64,000 nt of DNA from a virus: IMG/VR virus record IMGVR_UViG_3300046517_000866, positions 11,593 through 75,592 of that record. The stretch is one strand, 5' to 3'. Positions 1,533-7,365 of the stretch are shown one piece after another; the first letter of the stretch is position 1; every line of letters starts with the position of its first letter. The translations under genes were made by a program, and so were the position numbers. The notes below the pieces were generated by a model. The model worked only from the letters and a program-made list of their open reading frames with translations, had not been told where the DNA came from and searched no databases.

Positions 1533-1928
1533 ATGAATAGGTACGCGATGATCACTCGACGTTACCATTTCGAGGCCGCACACGATCTACCAATGGTCCC
1601 GGATGGTCACAAATGCAAAAGACTACACGGGCACAACTACGTGGTGGAGTTGTCCCTCACAGGTCCAATCAACGATGACGGGTTCGTCATTGATTTCTGG
1701 GAGTTGGACGATATCATGAAGCCTCTTCTCTCAATTGTGGACCACACGTACCTCAATGGCCACGCGGATTTAGAAAATCCGACAGCGGAAAACATCGCCC
1801 TTTGGTTTGCTGGTTGGTTTGTACACGGAAAGGGCAGTACTTGTGCGCGCCTAGCGAAAAGAGAGTGCACTGTCACCAAGATTACAGTGTTCGAAACGCC
1901 GGAGTGTTCCGCAACCTACTACCTCTAA
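1533..1928 (+). CDS. queD: 6-carboxy-5,6,7,8-tetrahydropterin synthase
   Basis: FEAAHxL...KCKRLHGHNY, IDF, DHTYLN, NPTAENIA and ETP motifs. Confidence 0.95.
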   Translation: MNRYAMITRRYHFEAAHDLPMVPDGHKCKRLHGHNYVVELSLTGPINDDGFVIDFWELDDIMKPLLSIVDHTYLNGHADLENPTAENIALWFAGWFVHGKGSTCARLAKRECTVTKITVFETPECSATYYL

Positions 1929-1992
1929 ACCCCTCCAAAATAAATGCGTATGTAATGACACATGCGTATTGCAATCGTGAGAAAGAACTGGC

Positions 1993-2613
1993 ATGACACA
2001 TATCGTCGAAGTTGAGCTGCAAAAGGCAGTTAAGGTTAAGCAGAAATCCGGGGAAGAACGCCAATCTTACCTGGAGAGGCTTGTCCTAGCAGCCAACAAG
2101 ATACCCGAGGATGAGTGGGAGATCCTTTCAACCGCGGCGCAAAAGTGGGTAGTTGCTGGCGCCGACGCATTGAATGAGGAAACCAGCATCACGGATTTCG
2201 AAGGTGGCAATACCGCCACAGCGCAAGACGAGGATACTACAATGGCACGCACTGCCGAAGACACGCAAGACGAACGCCCGAACAAGAAAAAGAAAGCCAC
2301 ACCGGCTGCGCCGAAGGAAAAGAGCGCCAAAGCGGAGAAGTCCAAGGCGCCTGAAAAGTCCAAGGCACCGGAGAAGACCGAAAAGGCGGCAAAGCCCGCC
2401 AAGGTTTCCGCCGCTCCCAAAGAGGACGGTATCAAGGTTCGCATCAAGAAGTTGGTAATCAAGAAGCCCAGCATTTCGGCCGCGGAAATTGTCGAAGCTC
2501 TTTCCAAGAACGGCGAGACCCCCTCGGCTCTCACAGTTGCCAGCATTCGCGCTGAGTTCCGACATTCGTTGCATGTTCTCAAAATGTGCAACTGGCCTCA
2601 GGTCGATATCTAG
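1993..2613 (+). CDS. Putative DNA-binding protein with Lys/Ala-rich histone-like linker
   Basis: KAEKSKAPEKSKAPEK repeats followed by a basic, possibly winged-helix, C-terminus. Confidence 0.45.
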   Translation: MTHIVEVELQKAVKVKQKSGEERQSYLERLVLAANKIPEDEWEILSTAAQKWVVAGADALNEETSITDFEGGNTATAQDEDTTMARTAEDTQDERPNKKKKATPAAPKEKSAKAEKSKAPEKSKAPEKTEKAAKPAKVSAAPKEDGIKVRIKKLVIKKPSISAAEIVEALSKNGETPSALTVASIRAEFRHSLHVLKMCNWPQVDI

Positions 2614-2639
2614 TTTCTACCGAGTCCTCCCCAACTTGG

Positions 2640-2670
2640 CGGGCCCCCGATCAAAGGGGCCCGTTCTTTC
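2640..2670 (+). terminator. Rho-independent terminator
   Basis: CGGGCCCC-loop-GGGGCCCG stem followed by TTCTTT after the 1993..2613 stop. Confidence 0.6.
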
Positions 2671-2702
2671 GTATGTAATAGAAAGAAAGGGGAAACTACT
2701 TC

Positions 2703-3428
2703 ATGACAAACCTTAAACTCTGGGTGGCGCGTTTTGGTGACACATCAAAACCAGCAATCGTGTTGCTGTCGGGCGGAATGGACTCCACAGTAGCCTTATA
2801 CTGGGCAAAAGCCACATTTCCAAGCGTTCGTGCCCTATTCGTTGACTATGGGCAGATATCAGTGAACACTGAGTGGAAGTGTACTCAAAATATTGCACGG
2901 CTCGCAGACACTGACGTATTTTTCGCTCGGTTCCCTGTGTTCATTTCGCCCAGTTCGATCATAGGAGTTACACCTATCGCCCATTACGCAAACGTACAAG
3001 AGGCAATGGATGATACAGCCAACGATCCATCATATGTGCCCCTGCGCAATGCCGTTTTCACAACAGTTGCAGCACATCATCTACTTGTGCGATCACCCAA
3101 GGGGGGCTCTGTTGTCCTTGGCGTTCGCTCTCGCGCGGACGGCGACACAGAGTATGCGGGATTTCCCGATTGTTCCACACAGTTCTGCACTCGCATAGGA
3201 CAAGCACTTTCGATCGCAGCAAACGCTGTAGTTGACGTGCTTGATCCTCTCAATCATTTTGCGCCTACTCGTGGCAAAACCGTACAGATGGCGAGAGAAG
3301 TGGGAGCTTTCGAAGCACTCCGCTTTACGCACTCATGCTTCCATGCCAAACGGTGTGGAAAATGCCTTCCTTGCTTGCGCCGCGCCCAAGCATTCGCGGA
3401 AGTAGGATTAGACGATCCAGCAATGTGA
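2703..3428 (+). CDS. queC: 7-cyano-7-deazaguanine (preQ0) synthase
   Basis: PP-loop LSGGMDS, DYGQ, YVPLRN, FPDC and Zn motif SC...CGKCLPCLRR. Confidence 0.93.
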   Translation: MTNLKLWVARFGDTSKPAIVLLSGGMDSTVALYWAKATFPSVRALFVDYGQISVNTEWKCTQNIARLADTDVFFARFPVFISPSSIIGVTPIAHYANVQEAMDDTANDPSYVPLRNAVFTTVAAHHLLVRSPKGGSVVLGVRSRADGDTEYAGFPDCSTQFCTRIGQALSIAANAVVDVLDPLNHFAPTRGKTVQMAREVGAFEALRFTHSCFHAKRCGKCLPCLRRAQAFAEVGLDDPAM

Positions 3429-3527
3429 GGTTGAAATGACATGGACGGCGACAGCGGTAAAAACTGCCCATGCTTTACAAGAATTGTGATAAGAGTTGGT
3501 GGTTCTAAAAAACAGAGGTAACTCTCT

Positions 3528-4817
3528 ATGACAAAGGCTTATTACCGCTCATTTTCCGATAACCTGCCTAAGGTATGGAGCGCTCACGGTCCATGGGTAT
3601 TCCTTTCCGATCGGCGGGCTCGTGTCCTAGACATGTCTGGAAGTGCCTGCTTTGCAAGTCTAGGATATAGTAACGAATACGTAATACGAGCAATCAAGGA
3701 ACAATTAGAAGCCATACCCCACGCTTTTGCAGGACTGGGAACTTCCGACGCAGCAGAAAAAGCGGCCGACCTGATTTCACGTCCCTTAGAAAAAGCAAAC
3801 CCCGGATGGTTTGGCAAATGCTTGTTCCAGCAAGGTGGCGGCGAAACTGTTGATCTAGCGTGCAAGCTGGCCGCGCAGTATCATTTGGAAAAAGAACAGA
3901 ACCATCGCCAACGCTTTGCTGCATTAGAGTTCAGTTACCACGGGGTAGGATTATTACCGTTCTCATTGTCTGGAGGTTACCCCCGATATGCGTTGATCGA
4001 TCCATACCATGGCGTCACTAACAATTGTGTCAGTAGACTAGCACACCCTATTATAAGCAATACCCAAGACAGGACAAAAGAAATCATTTACTCCGAAAAA
4101 CTTGCTGCTGTCATCATCGAGCCCATTGGAGGACCCCCGCTTGGTGCTTGCCCCCTTCCCGGGTGGTATGTTAAGAAGCTACGCCAACTTTGTGATGATA
4201 CAGACACACTTTTGATATTTGACGAGATACTATGTGGCGCAGGACGTTGCGGGTACATGTCAATGGCGGAGTACTATGACGTTTGGCCCGACATTCTCTT
4301 ACTGGGAAAAGGGCTGACCTCAGGCTATCAACCCATGTCCGCAATCGTTGTTTCCAAGAAGGTATGTGACAGGATCAAGCAGGGTTCAGGAACAATCATG
4401 TTCGGCACCTGCTATGCCAATCACACAACAGGTTGCGCCGCTGTCGCAGCAACACTTGAATACTGCTACCAACACGCGTTGTTCGAAGTCGTCAGGCAAA
4501 ATGGTGAGTTCATCCATAAACTTCTGTCCCAAGCATTTCAGCAACCAAAATTTCAAATCAGAGGTCGCGGTCACTTATGGGGAATTGAGTTACGCCATCC
4601 AGACGCAACGTATTTTCAGCCGTCTACACAGTTCCACATGAAAGCACGCAAGGCCATTCTCGACGCTGGCGCGATTGTATACTCCAAAGGACAAACAGTA
4701 AATGGAAAGGGTGACTTCATCACGCTGGCGCCAATGTATGAAATGACTCATGCAGTGATGGAGATGGGAGTTGAAATAATCGCGGAAGGTCTCAAAAACG
4801 CCTATCAGGGAGTTTAG
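3528..4817 (+). CDS. Class-III PLP-dependent aminotransferase
   Basis: SYHG, AAVIIEPI, LIFDEILCGAGRCG, PDILLLGKGLTSGY (PLP lysine) and RGRG motifs. Confidence 0.9.
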   Translation: MTKAYYRSFSDNLPKVWSAHGPWVFLSDRRARVLDMSGSACFASLGYSNEYVIRAIKEQLEAIPHAFAGLGTSDAAEKAADLISRPLEKANPGWFGKCLFQQGGGETVDLACKLAAQYHLEKEQNHRQRFAALEFSYHGVGLLPFSLSGGYPRYALIDPYHGVTNNCVSRLAHPIISNTQDRTKEIIYSEKLAAVIIEPIGGPPLGACPLPGWYVKKLRQLCDDTDTLLIFDEILCGAGRCGYMSMAEYYDVWPDILLLGKGLTSGYQPMSAIVVSKKVCDRIKQGSGTIMFGTCYANHTTGCAAVAATLEYCYQHALFEVVRQNGEFIHKLLSQAFQQPKFQIRGRGHLWGIELRHPDATYFQPSTQFHMKARKAILDAGAIVYSKGQTVNGKGDFITLAPMYEMTHAVMEMGVEIIAEGLKNAYQGV

Positions 4818-4821
4818 ACAA

Positions 4822-5472
4822 ATGTGGTTCCAAGCAACAGTTGACGCCCCTACAATATTCGAGGCTCGTCGGTTACTATACGACTATGAAAAGGTGCCAG
4901 AAATCGACTACGTTGAGATCGGGGCGCCGATGCTGACCCACTACGGGGTCGACGTGATCAAGTCATTCACGGACTACATCCCCGTTGCCAAACTGTACGC
5001 TGACATTAAGTGCATCGATTTTCCAGAAATGGAAATGACTCCCTACATGGATCGTGGCATCACACGCATGTCGGCAATGGCCGTCATGAACTATCAAGCA
5101 TTCGTGGAGTTAGCTCGTCTGAAAGACCGATATGGATTGACCATTCTGGTTAGTTTGATGGGTTTTCCTATCAGTTACCTACGGGATAAAATTTCGGACC
5201 TTCACAGTCTTGGTTTTTTCAATTTCATCTGCCATGGAGCAGGCGTTCGGCCCCCTGATGCCTTTCACAACATGATGCAGTATCTTGTAGTAGTAAATGA
5301 GATAAAGAAAAAAATACCCGAATTGAAAATTATCGCCGCAGGTGGCATCGATCGGCATAATGCCCCTATACTTGCTTACAACTACAAAGTGGACGGATTG
5401 ATAGTTGGTCGTGGCATTGCAAAAGACGGCAACATTAGGGATGCAGTACAGCAAATCCGCAACTGCTTCTAA
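4822..5472 (+). CDS. OMP decarboxylase / 3-hexulose-6-phosphate synthase (HUMPS/KGPDC)-like TIM barrel
   Basis: QATVD, EIGAPML..YG, ADIKCID (DxKxxD), AAGGI and IVGRGI motifs. Confidence 0.8.
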   Translation: MWFQATVDAPTIFEARRLLYDYEKVPEIDYVEIGAPMLTHYGVDVIKSFTDYIPVAKLYADIKCIDFPEMEMTPYMDRGITRMSAMAVMNYQAFVELARLKDRYGLTILVSLMGFPISYLRDKISDLHSLGFFNFICHGAGVRPPDAFHNMMQYLVVVNEIKKKIPELKIIAAGGIDRHNAPILAYNYKVDGLIVGRGIAKDGNIRDAVQQIRNCF

Positions 5473-5480
5473 AAAGGGGG

Positions 5481-6068
5481 TTGATCATGACTGACTGGAG
5501 TATGTTTGGACTAGTTAGGTACCTCATTAAAAACCTTGACCCTAATCCAGAAAGAGAAGGATTGCGAGAAACGCCAAAGCGTTTCATCGAAGCCTGGCAA
5601 TTCTGGTGCTCTGGCGCTGGGATTGATCCACAGTCAGTACTGAAAGTGTTTGAAGACGGCGCCGAGCACTATGACGAAATGATTTTTCAGGGTTCAATTC
5701 CTTTTTGGAGTAACTGCGAGCACCACATGGCTCCATTTTTTGGAGTTGCCCATATCGGCTATATTCCAAATGGTCGGATTGTAGGACTCTCCAAGATCGC
5801 ACGAGTAACCGACATTCTGGCAAGACGCCTGCAAGTCCAAGAACGTTTGACTGTTCAAATTGCCGATGCATTGATGCAGGGGTTGACTCCACTGGGCGTA
5901 GGGGTCGTGCTTCAAGCAAGACACACTTGCATGGAGTCACGAGGTGTGCAAAAGATCGGCTCAATCACAACAACGTCGTCATTGATTGGTAATTTTAGGG
6001 AACCAGCAGTGCGTGCTGAGTTCATGGGATTTGTCCACAGCGCCGATCGGGGAATTGCAAGTGTCTAA
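5481..6068 (+). CDS. folE: GTP cyclohydrolase I
   Basis: REGLRETPKR, CEHHMAPFFG, GLSKIAR, QVQERLT and HTCMESRG motifs. Confidence 0.97.
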   Translation: MIMTDWSMFGLVRYLIKNLDPNPEREGLRETPKRFIEAWQFWCSGAGIDPQSVLKVFEDGAEHYDEMIFQGSIPFWSNCEHHMAPFFGVAHIGYIPNGRIVGLSKIARVTDILARRLQVQERLTVQIADALMQGLTPLGVGVVLQARHTCMESRGVQKIGSITTTSSLIGNFREPAVRAEFMGFVHSADRGIASV

Positions 6069-7365
6069 GAAACAGTTTGCCATCAAGCTCATGCTTGATA
6101 GTGGTGTCTTTTCTGCTTGGAACCGAGGACAAGAAATCAAATTGAAAGAGTACATTGCCTACCTCAAGGACCATAAAGAATGGCTGTACTCCTATGTCAA
6201 CCTAGATCAGATACCCGGCGAATTTGGACGCACCCCGACACAGGCAGACGTGGCACAATCGGCGCGCGTCGGATATGACAACTTCCAAAAAATGAAAGCC
6301 GAAGGTCTAGACCCAATCCCCGTGTTTCACCAAGGGGAGGATATTCGCTGGCTAGAACGGATGATCAATGACGGTGACAAGTACATCGGACTAGCGACAC
6401 GCAAAGACGTGTGGGCCATAGATCAGCGGCGCTGGTTGGACAAGATTTTTTCGATCATCACAAACGCCAAGGGCGAACCCCTTGTCAAAACTCACGGCTT
6501 CGGAATTACGCGACCAGGATTTCTATTCCGCTACCCATGGTTTTCAACTGACAGCACAACATGGTCACTGACTCCTGGGTACGGACAAATTCTAGTGCCA
6601 CGTTACAAGAACGGCAAACCTGATTACCTACATACGCCGCAAAAGGTCATAATGTCGGGCATTCAGCCATCAGTCCATGCACAGACAAAGAACCAGTTCG
6701 AGGCTTTAGGTCCGGCGACACAAGATCATATTTTACAGTTTCTTGACGAAGTCTGTGGACTGACGATTGAGCAAGTACGCTATCAAACAAATACTCGCCG
6801 TACTGCGATGCTGATATACTACGTTGCATTATGCAAAGCGCTCCATCACGTAACCTTCCATGATCGCACAAGTGGGGGCCTCAATCGCGACGGGTTCAAA
6901 CACAACCTGAAGGCACCACCCAAACCATGGAACTTGCAGATATTCTTTGCAACGGCTCTCAATCGATCCTGGAATAAACTCATGCTAGACACCAATGCAA
7001 ATACGCGCTTGTTGTCCTACTATGAGATGCGGGAGAAGTCGACAGAATGCCTGCAACAGTATGTTGAAAATGGCGTGATCATCACGGACCCACGGAAACC
7101 ACGGAAGACAGTTACCACAAAGAAAACTCCGATTACTCAGGAACGTAAAAAGGAAGTTATTGAACTGTTGCTGGCACCTGGAGCTGACTTGGACACGATT
7201 GCACACCTAACGGGTATCAAACGATCAGCCCTTGCCTTATGGCAACGCAAAGCAGCAGGTCGGTTTGCCATCATGGCAAAATGGAAACGCGAAGTATATG
7301 TAAACATCCGTCGCGCAAGCATCGCAGAACGCAGCAAAAGGGCAGAACCAGATGGACAGGTCTAA
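6061..7365 (+). CDS. TGT-fold deazaguanine DNA transglycosylase (DpdA-like) with C-terminal extension
   Basis: LDSGVFSAW, NLDQIPG, PIPVFHQGE, HGFG and PWFSTDSTTW motifs; directly follows folE. GTG at 6061 chosen over the ORF-track start 5986. Confidence 0.72.
   Translation: MSKKQFAIKLMLDSGVFSAWNRGQEIKLKEYIAYLKDHKEWLYSYVNLDQIPGEFGRTPTQADVAQSARVGYDNFQKMKAEGLDPIPVFHQGEDIRWLERMINDGDKYIGLATRKDVWAIDQRRWLDKIFSIITNAKGEPLVKTHGFGITRPGFLFRYPWFSTDSTTWSLTPGYGQILVPRYKNGKPDYLHTPQKVIMSGIQPSVHAQTKNQFEALGPATQDHILQFLDEVCGLTIEQVRYQTNTRRTAMLIYYVALCKALHHVTFHDRTSGGLNRDGFKHNLKAPPKPWNLQIFFATALNRSWNKLMLDTNANTRLLSYYEMREKSTECLQQYVENGVIITDPRKPRKTVTTKKTPITQERKKEVIELLLAPGADLDTIAHLTGIKRSALALWQRKAAGRFAIMAKWKREVYVNIRRASIAERSKRAEPDGQV

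Follow-up and report, generated by a model that had tools for sequence, protein, structure and literature searches.

The stretch of DNA considered here, called the window in what follows, comprises 64,000 nucleotides of an uncultured soil phage and corresponds to bases 11593−75592 of a 75.6-kb IMG/VR record (IMGVR_UViG_3300046517_000866), whose CheckV completeness is 73%. A phage replication module occupies its left end; there, all on the + strand, a primase fragment and a sigma-like gene are followed by QueD, a gene for a 206-aa protein, a QueC-family gene, a class-III aminotransferase (AT), a barrel enzyme resembling HPS (hexulose-phosphate synthase) and KGPDC, FolE, and a DpdA-like gene. 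Next, in the 3′ direction, are genes for a DnaN-like clamp, a UDG-fused PolA, a clamp loader, a gp32-like SSB, and RecA. The subject of this work is the segment from QueD to the DpdA-like gene (Table 1), which is a FolE/QueD/QueE/QueC + DpdA module of phage 7-deazaguanine DNA modification, together with the two additional enzymes, the AT and the barrel, that lie inside it. A preliminary description, made from the sequence, had named six genes of this segment, all except that of the 206-aa protein, and had noted that the last four nearly abut. Matches to Pfam, NCBIfam, and phrog models bear out the six assignments, their places and their strand, and the spacing is indeed tight, with 4 nt between the AT and the barrel, 8 nt between the barrel and FolE, and an overlap of FolE with the DpdA-like gene.

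Table 1. Genes of the 7-deazaguanine segment (window coordinates) and the matches that identify them
Feature	Coordinates	Strand	Basis
QueD (6-carboxytetrahydropterin synthase)	1533..1928	+	PF01242 5.2e-30; TIGR03367 90.2 bits vs cut-off 89.25
206-aa protein, kept in the phage lineage	1993..2613	+	no family match; weak C-terminal helix-turn-helix signal
Atypical QueC-family ATP-dependent ligase (QueC*)	2703..3428	+	PF06508 1.6e-35; TIGR00364 97.5 vs 150.3
Class-III (omega-type) PLP aminotransferase (AT)	3528..4817	+	PF00202 7.3e-53
HPS/KGPDC-like ribulose-phosphate-binding barrel (OMPDC/HUMPS family)	4822..5472	+	PF00215 1.5e-11; TIGR03128 73 vs 200
FolE (GTP cyclohydrolase I)	5481..6068	+	PF01227 9.1e-63; TIGR00063 190.3 bits vs cut-off 181.6
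DpdA-type DNA guanine transglycosylase, 'long' form	6055..7365	+	phrog_887 2.2e-40; TGT fold in AlphaFold model

The profile matches also confirm the kind of module that the preliminary description had proposed. FolE and QueD both score above their curated cut-offs and, with a QueE-like radical SAM gene, they make up the precursor set of a phage DpdA-type system. The QueE-like gene is outside the window, at record bases 8059−8871 on the minus strand and 2.7 kb before the first base of the window; its top matches are QueE models, yet every score is below the equivalog cut-off. No second QueC was found in the 73%-complete record, and no QueF was found either there or in the sister loci. Systems composed of FolE, QueD, QueE, and QueC with DpdA1 are known from Enterobacteria phage 9g and Escherichia phage CAjan (Hutinet et al. 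2019, PMC6884629; Cui et al. 2023, PMC10516641). With these the window shares the precursor genes, the DpdA family, and the place beside replication genes, but it differs from them in having a QueC without part of the canonical signature.

The last gene of the segment, first described as TGT-like, proved to be of the DpdA type by both profile and structure. Its product, whose start at 6055 follows the public gene call, has no match in Pfam or NCBIfam and was recognized through the phrog_887 model, 'queuine tRNA-ribosyltransferase'. It is 30−38% identical, over residues 8−270, to the DpdAs of phage 9g-like, NP1-like, and ZHS phages. A profile search of the sequences of solved structures with DpdA returned nothing real, and a fold search was needed. 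The AlphaFold model, for which 28 homologs served as input (pLDDT 86.5), aligns with TGT structures at Z 12.4−13.4 over ∼220 residues (rmsd 3.4−4.2; model residues 4−275), and the top Foldseek row, although weak (E 0.02), is the DpdA crystal structure 7ui4. Two residues, D15 (DSGAF) and D166 (DSTTW), are invariant in the 28 homologs and, judging from the resemblance to the DSGxF motif, are the predicted catalytic aspartates. The TGT-like core (residues 4−275) is followed by a C-terminal helical extension, with a helical tail after residue 340; since most homologs have 370−430 aa, the protein represents a 'long' form of DpdA.

Turning to the additional enzymes, the AT matches PF00202 over its full length (residues 19−420; 180 bits against a cut-off of 30.5), and it stays below the cut-offs of all NCBIfam equivalogs, the best being PRK07483 (262 vs 485), with BioA at 192 vs 405 and the daptide AT at 207 vs 450. 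The public gene call gives a protein of 394 aa starting at 3633; because alignments with the homologs begin at the first residue of the 429-aa frame, the start at 3528 is preferred. A large protein collection contains 27 relatives with 39−53% identity, and these form with the window AT a single clade, set apart from other aminotransferases with a support of 100. Across this clade, for which a membership of 29 proteins was counted, K261 and D232 are invariant, and they are the putative PLP residues. The solved relatives gave no assignment of a substrate.

The barrel belongs to a separate subfamily of roughly 45 representatives. Searched with the profile of this subfamily, HPS structures score best (1e-40 to 1e-28), ahead of KGPDC (1e-25) and OMPDC (1e-15). 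In 43 members, E32, D61, K63, D66, H138, G174, G175, G196, and R197 are invariant, and the Glu, the Asp-x-Lys-x-x-Asp, and the His of this set, along with the phosphate loops, align to the HPS and KGPDC structures. From what is known of KGPDC, we take these residues to be the metal ligands, the catalytic Lys, Asp, and His, and the phosphate loops, so that the protein is predicted to combine a metal-enediolate active site with a phosphate grip. The window barrel thus retains the catalytic set of these enzymes, but it is far below the equivalog cut-offs of both HxlA (TIGR03128, Table 1) and KGPDC (UlaD, 23 vs 250). One member of the subfamily, P0016, found on an ENA contig of 39,503 bases, carries an N-terminal type-I phosphoribosyltransferase (PF00156 1.9e-12), a layout that recalls UMP synthase.

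The barrel is not the only enzyme found in this position. What follows the AT on three sister contigs (L005, L007, and L008) is a gene for a protein of the class II aldolase family (PF00596, 6e-33 to 1e-44), and all three of these proteins keep the Asp/His/His/His metal site of the AraD type and the GTSGN phosphate loop. The copy on L008 passes the subfamily model of L-ribulose-5-phosphate 4-epimerase, NF005123, with 258.9 against 251. The HPS/KGPDC and AraD-like families both act on ketose phosphates through a metal-stabilized enediolate, and KGPDC and L-ribulose-5-phosphate 4-epimerase work in the same pentulose-phosphate pathway. The slot of the partner enzyme is therefore interchangeable, being filled either by the HPS-like barrel or by a non-homologous AraD-like class II aldolase, and in the tree of the ATs those with a barrel and those with an aldolase are interleaved.

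Homologs of the AT lie beside QueC, FolE/DpdA, or an HPS-like gene on 14 other contigs, six of which, all from metagenomes, were read directly from the DNA. Contig L060 repeats the order of the window (primase, sigma-like gene, QueD, 206-aa gene, QueC, AT); L005, L006, and L037 have QueC and then the AT; and L007 and L008 have the AT, the class II aldolase, FolE, and DpdA, followed on L008 by DnaN and PolA. The other eight linkages come from homologs whose longest contigs are of equal size, and they probably represent the AT with a member of the DpdA subfamily in six cases (41176, 13370, 25591, 19827, 16741, and 89234) and the AT with an HPS-like gene in two (81857 and 2250). A further match of this kind (4053) would connect an HPS-like gene with DpdA. 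The neighborhood survey thus shows the AT recurring in such clusters on independent contigs.

In contrast, neither the AT, nor the HPS-like gene, nor the class II aldolase was detected, by tblastn and profile HMM searches, in any of 80 IMG/VR loci having a related DpdA, most of which keep the same order from the primase through QueC-FolE-DpdA to DnaN and PolA. Likewise, in the nearest isolate, Edwardsiella phage vB_EpM_ZHS (ZHS, OM621816), QueC, FolE, and DpdA are adjacent with nothing inserted between them. The recurrence on sister contigs, taken with the absence from these 80 loci and from ZHS, indicates that the pair is a rare accessory insertion at one fixed place. Of the preliminary claim that the AT and the HPS-like enzyme are both members of the module, the part concerning the AT stands; the HPS-like enzyme is not constant, since the sisters have the AraD-like aldolase in the same slot. 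Among isolated phages, the matches of the AT were confined to genes of bacterial type from contaminated or transducing records, and the search with the barrel returned no homolog. Scans of viral contigs with the single AT, barrel, and DpdA proteins gave nothing, and neither did a scan of viral and metagenome contigs with the barrel alignment A1. Two soil contigs of bacterial appearance, probably from one organism, have a distant AT (27−29% identity) by queC/queE (L017:1512−4329 and L023:9932−12821); the genes are convergent there, and the cases were treated as coincidence.

The absence of both enzymes from the described systems, which the preliminary description had pointed out, holds for the literature as we found it. 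The tailoring enzymes published for DpdA systems, namely QueF, Gat-QueC, ArcS, DpdL, DpdM, and DpdN (PMC10516641), include no aminotransferase and no sugar-phosphate enzyme. Our literature search found no paper that connects deazaguanine clusters with any of the three enzymes (aminotransferase, HPS-like enzyme, class II aldolase), nor one describing the pathway proposed below.

Genes of this sort could be metabolic passengers. In that case the AT and its sugar-phosphate partner would raise a precursor pool, such as pentose phosphates for GTP or PRPP, or an amino donor, while the base stays as it is and the drift of QueC described below is unrelated. Auxiliary metabolic genes are common in phages, HPS-type enzymes are established as feeders of pentose phosphate in some organisms, and the phosphoribosyltransferase fusion of one barrel subfamily member would suit such a role. 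What makes us regard this explanation as unlikely is that the pair is always between QueC and FolE, often abutting or overlapping, that the AT clade is seen only in the context of deazaguanine clusters, and that a near-universal signature residue of QueC is lost exactly in the AT-linked clade.

This last point needs to be described at some length. The canonical QueC signature consists of SGGxDS, YxQxHxxE, VPxRN, YPDC, a conserved Lys, and C(x)8CxxCxxC with an essential Tyr (PMC13329287). The window protein, here termed QueC*, keeps SGGMDS, YVPLRN, FPDC, and the zinc cysteines (C-x6-CGKCLPC), and it scores below the QueC equivalog cut-off (TIGR00364, Table 1). Where the canonical enzyme has YxQxHxxE it reads YGQISVNTE, so that the His is gone. 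In addition, it has FPDC, CF, and Arg in place of the essential Tyr of YPDC, the Tyr after the first zinc Cys (E. coli Y131 and Y189), and the conserved K165. These Tyr-to-Phe and Lys-to-Arg changes are common to three AT-less sister QueCs and are thus not specific to the AT; moreover, a Y131F mutant of QueC retains partial activity (PMC13329287). Having lost part of the canonical signature, QueC* sets the module apart from a canonical preQ0 system. No isolated phage was found to have a QueC more than 33% identical to QueC*.

The missing His follows the AT. In a motif table of 63 loci, it is present in 52 of the 54 QueCs from AT-less phages and absent from all four complete AT-linked QueCs, and in a tree of 62 QueCs these four form one clade (SH-aLRT 99, stem 0.77). 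Only this clade has gained three invariant arginines, R142, R144, and R226, which would suit an anionic co-substrate. Compared with the window copy, the QueCs of AT-linked contigs have 42−58% identity and no other QueC exceeds 34%, whereas the corresponding ranges for AT-linked and AT-less contigs overlap for FolE (55−59% vs 50−66%), DpdA (40−51% vs 35−47%), and PolA (44% vs 40−55%), and QueD is about equally similar to the window copy in both groups. Among the proteins compared (FolE, DpdA, PolA, QueD, and QueC), QueC alone co-varies with the AT. The accessory unit is a conserved one of three genes: the altered QueC, the class-III AT, and a metal-dependent ketose-phosphate enzyme.

This co-variation bears on the reading first proposed for the two enzymes, that of tailoring after preQ0. 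QueC would make preQ0 in the usual manner, and a C7 substituent (formyl, keto, or aminomethyl) would then be the target of the AT and the aldolase-type enzyme, for example by conversion of preQ1 to the 7-formyl compound and aldol addition of a ketose phosphate, either on the free base or on the base in DNA. It is established that enzymes of both partner families join an enediolate to an aldehyde and that class-III ATs turn terminal amines into aldehydes and back; the genes also sit within the cluster. Tailoring after preQ0 nevertheless leaves the change confined to QueC, including the loss of the signature His, without an explanation, and the searches of the record and of the sister loci turned up neither QueF nor any other enzyme that reduces a nitrile or a carboxylate. 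We consider it improbable, and the transamination of a C7 formyl or keto intermediate suggested in the preliminary description is not upheld by these results. The evidence fits better with the AT producing an amine that the altered QueC ligates to the carboxylate of 7-carboxy-7-deazaguanine (CDG).

The altered QueC might, on the other hand, simply make ADG and go no further than the primary amide, as has been proposed for Campylobacter phages; the DNA would then carry the known base dADG, with the AT pair doing something else. An altered QueC (also termed QueC*) has been proposed to make ADG in dADG phages (PMC10516641), and the window QueC is well below the equivalog cut-off. Campylobacter phage CP220, which has dADG in its DNA, is informative here: its QueC keeps the His (YGSNH) and the CY motif, both of which are lost in the AT-linked QueCs, so that the loss of the His is not simply the mark of an enzyme stopping at the primary amide. 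The idea that the loss of the His marks an ADG synthase was rejected on this ground, and plain dADG, which would also leave the strict pairing of QueC with the AT unaccounted for, appears very unlikely.

A closer parallel for the His-less motif is offered by Cap9 and QatC, the 'deazaguanylation' ligases of type IV CBASS and QatABCD (Wassarman et al. 2025; PMC13329287; PMC13279940). The 'Y/FxQ(x)5E variant' is the form found in Cap9, which couples CDG to its partner protein at the N-terminal amine (PMC13329287); in the Cap9 structure 9nto, the motif position reads FGQAAVAPE. QueC* resembles these enzymes in being a QueC-family ATP-dependent enzyme with a His-less Y/FxQ(x)5E motif, and in the proposed joining of the CDG carboxylate to an amine instead of the formation of a nitrile. 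There are differences as well. Cap9 and QatC modify the N-terminus of a partner protein in bacterial defense, whereas the window has neither a CD-NTase adjacent to QueC* nor a QatB partner; QueC* is nearer in sequence to the QueC 3bl5 (2e-11) than to Cap9 (1e-6), and its 241 aa correspond to the canonical QueC size and not to the minimal scaffold of ∼185 aa of Cap9. The pathway envisaged for the window would use a small-molecule amine and deliver its product to phage DNA, and the module is not a member of those defense systems.

The pathway that we put forward, tentatively and with a little less than even confidence, is that the sugar-phosphate enzyme, together with the AT, produces a phosphorylated amine, that QueC* links this amine to CDG as an amide, and that DpdA inserts the product. 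FolE, QueD, and QueE, whose genes are present, would provide CDG as in the established pathway. The ketose-phosphate enzyme would supply an unusual keto- or aldo-sugar phosphate, and the AT would convert the carbonyl compound to a primary amine. By analogy with Cap9 and QatC, QueC* may then adenylate the CDG carboxylate and couple it to this amine in place of ammonia, giving an N-substituted 7-carboxamido-7-deazaguanine, which could not be dehydrated to the nitrile preQ0. Lastly, DpdA would exchange the product for guanine in the phage DNA, where it should block restriction.

Several points weigh against this pathway. What has been observed is the gene content, the linkage, the exchange of partners, and the co-variation of QueC, and from there we infer all of the chemical steps. 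Eight of the 14 linkages were drawn from equal longest-contig sizes of the AT, barrel, and DpdA homologs and not from reading the DNA. With only four complete AT-linked QueCs, all in one clade, the loss of the His counts as a single evolutionary event. The mutants reported for QueC concern Y35, R99, Y131, and Y189 and not the His of YxQxHxxE (PMC13329287). The best solved relative of the AT, 3i4j, is a protein of no known function, and the AT has no characterized close relative. We know of no citable class-III enzyme acting on ketose phosphates. No phosphatase is linked to the module, and since the record is only 73% complete, a QueF or a second QueC could lie in the missing part.

The transglycosylase is a further difficulty. 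No alignment column separates AT-linked from AT-less DpdAs, and the two groups are interleaved in the DpdA tree. Such an absence of adaptation is unexpected if a much bulkier base had to be accepted, and it fits better with an open pocket or with ligation after insertion. In the latter case, DpdA would insert CDG (or preQ0) and QueC* would then use the AT-derived amine to amidate this base within the DNA, a sequence of events that may be likened to the action of DpdC on dPreQ0 in bacterial Dpd systems. A DpdA without sequence adaptation to the AT agrees with a small substrate that has stayed the same, DpdA3 phages have been proposed to insert CDG (PMC10516641), and the arginines gained in the AT-linked QueCs could bind the DNA backbone. 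QueC*, however, has the size of a canonical QueC with no added DNA-binding domain, and we know of no precedent for a QueC-family enzyme acting on DNA; amide formation on DNA seems to us an unlikely course.

Other genes of the region were examined alongside. In the 206-aa protein the two ends, of about 70 aa and 40 aa, are conserved and the part between them varies; homologs have 164−430 aa, and its residues 145−200 give weak helix-turn-helix-like matches (Atlas structure rows). It was considered as a member of the module and rejected, as its homologs occur in most relatives, AT-bearing or AT-less; it is probably not part of the chemistry of the module. As for the replication genes, ZHS and the Mardecavirus-like Vibrio phages SSP002 and MAR10 have a syntenic module (primase, sigma-like gene, DnaN, UDG-fused PolA, clamp loader, SSB, and RecA). 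The window polymerase (8577−11240) is of family A, with an N-terminal domain of the UDG superfamily and a 3′−5′ exonuclease, and the polymerases of these phages have the same layout and are 30−33% identical to it. ZHS differs from the window in having a canonical QueC signature and a short DpdA (266 aa) and in lacking both the AT and the aldolase, and SSP002 has no deazaguanine genes in the corresponding interval. Between DpdA and DnaN, ZHS has a gene annotated as a nucleoside 2-deoxyribosyltransferase (L003:11724−12134), where the interval of the window is empty.

A few features of the related loci also deserve mention. FolE of one sister IMG/VR phage is split by an HNH-bearing intein (L075:8359−9753; Intein_splicing 2.8e-13, HNH_3 1.4e-5, two GTP_cyclohydroI stretches), and on the AT-bearing sister contig L008 a NUMOD4/HNH homing-endonuclease gene is located between FolE and DpdA (L008:2404−2928). 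Regarding QueC, a 453-aa frame, counted from stop to stop (L091:7205−8563), holds QueC matches in two stretches, the last covering residues 343−440, with a weak Asn_synthase match at residues 177−266; this may be an insertion or a fusion. Two other loci, L133 and L145, encode QueC-family proteins of 400−440 aa with SSGLDS and YGCRA or YNCKA, in which the His is also missing, and which we would guess to be fusions of the Gat-QueC type.

Finally, we consider what these genes may mean for the phages that carry them. To our knowledge, eight 7-deazaguanine derivatives have been found in phage DNA, all with small groups at C7. The undescribed base is a prediction from gene context and motifs, in which the AraD/UlaF-like enzyme of the sister contigs would take the place of the barrel. 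With slightly more reserve than for the pathway itself, we suggest that this clade of soil phages practices a small-molecule 'deazaguanylation' by a QueC-family enzyme, in which a sugar-phosphate-derived amine made by a transaminase is linked as an amide to CDG and installed in DNA by DpdA; the outcome would be a purine analogue in DNA bearing a polyol or an amino sugar, with the type of partner enzyme setting the side chain. If so, an amide-linked side chain of sugar-phosphate origin would add a new chemical class to the DNA bases, and amine ligation by the QueC family would extend from bacterial defense proteins to phage DNA. Such a base would also present a new target, or a new obstacle, to restriction enzymes, glycosylases, and sequencing chemistry.

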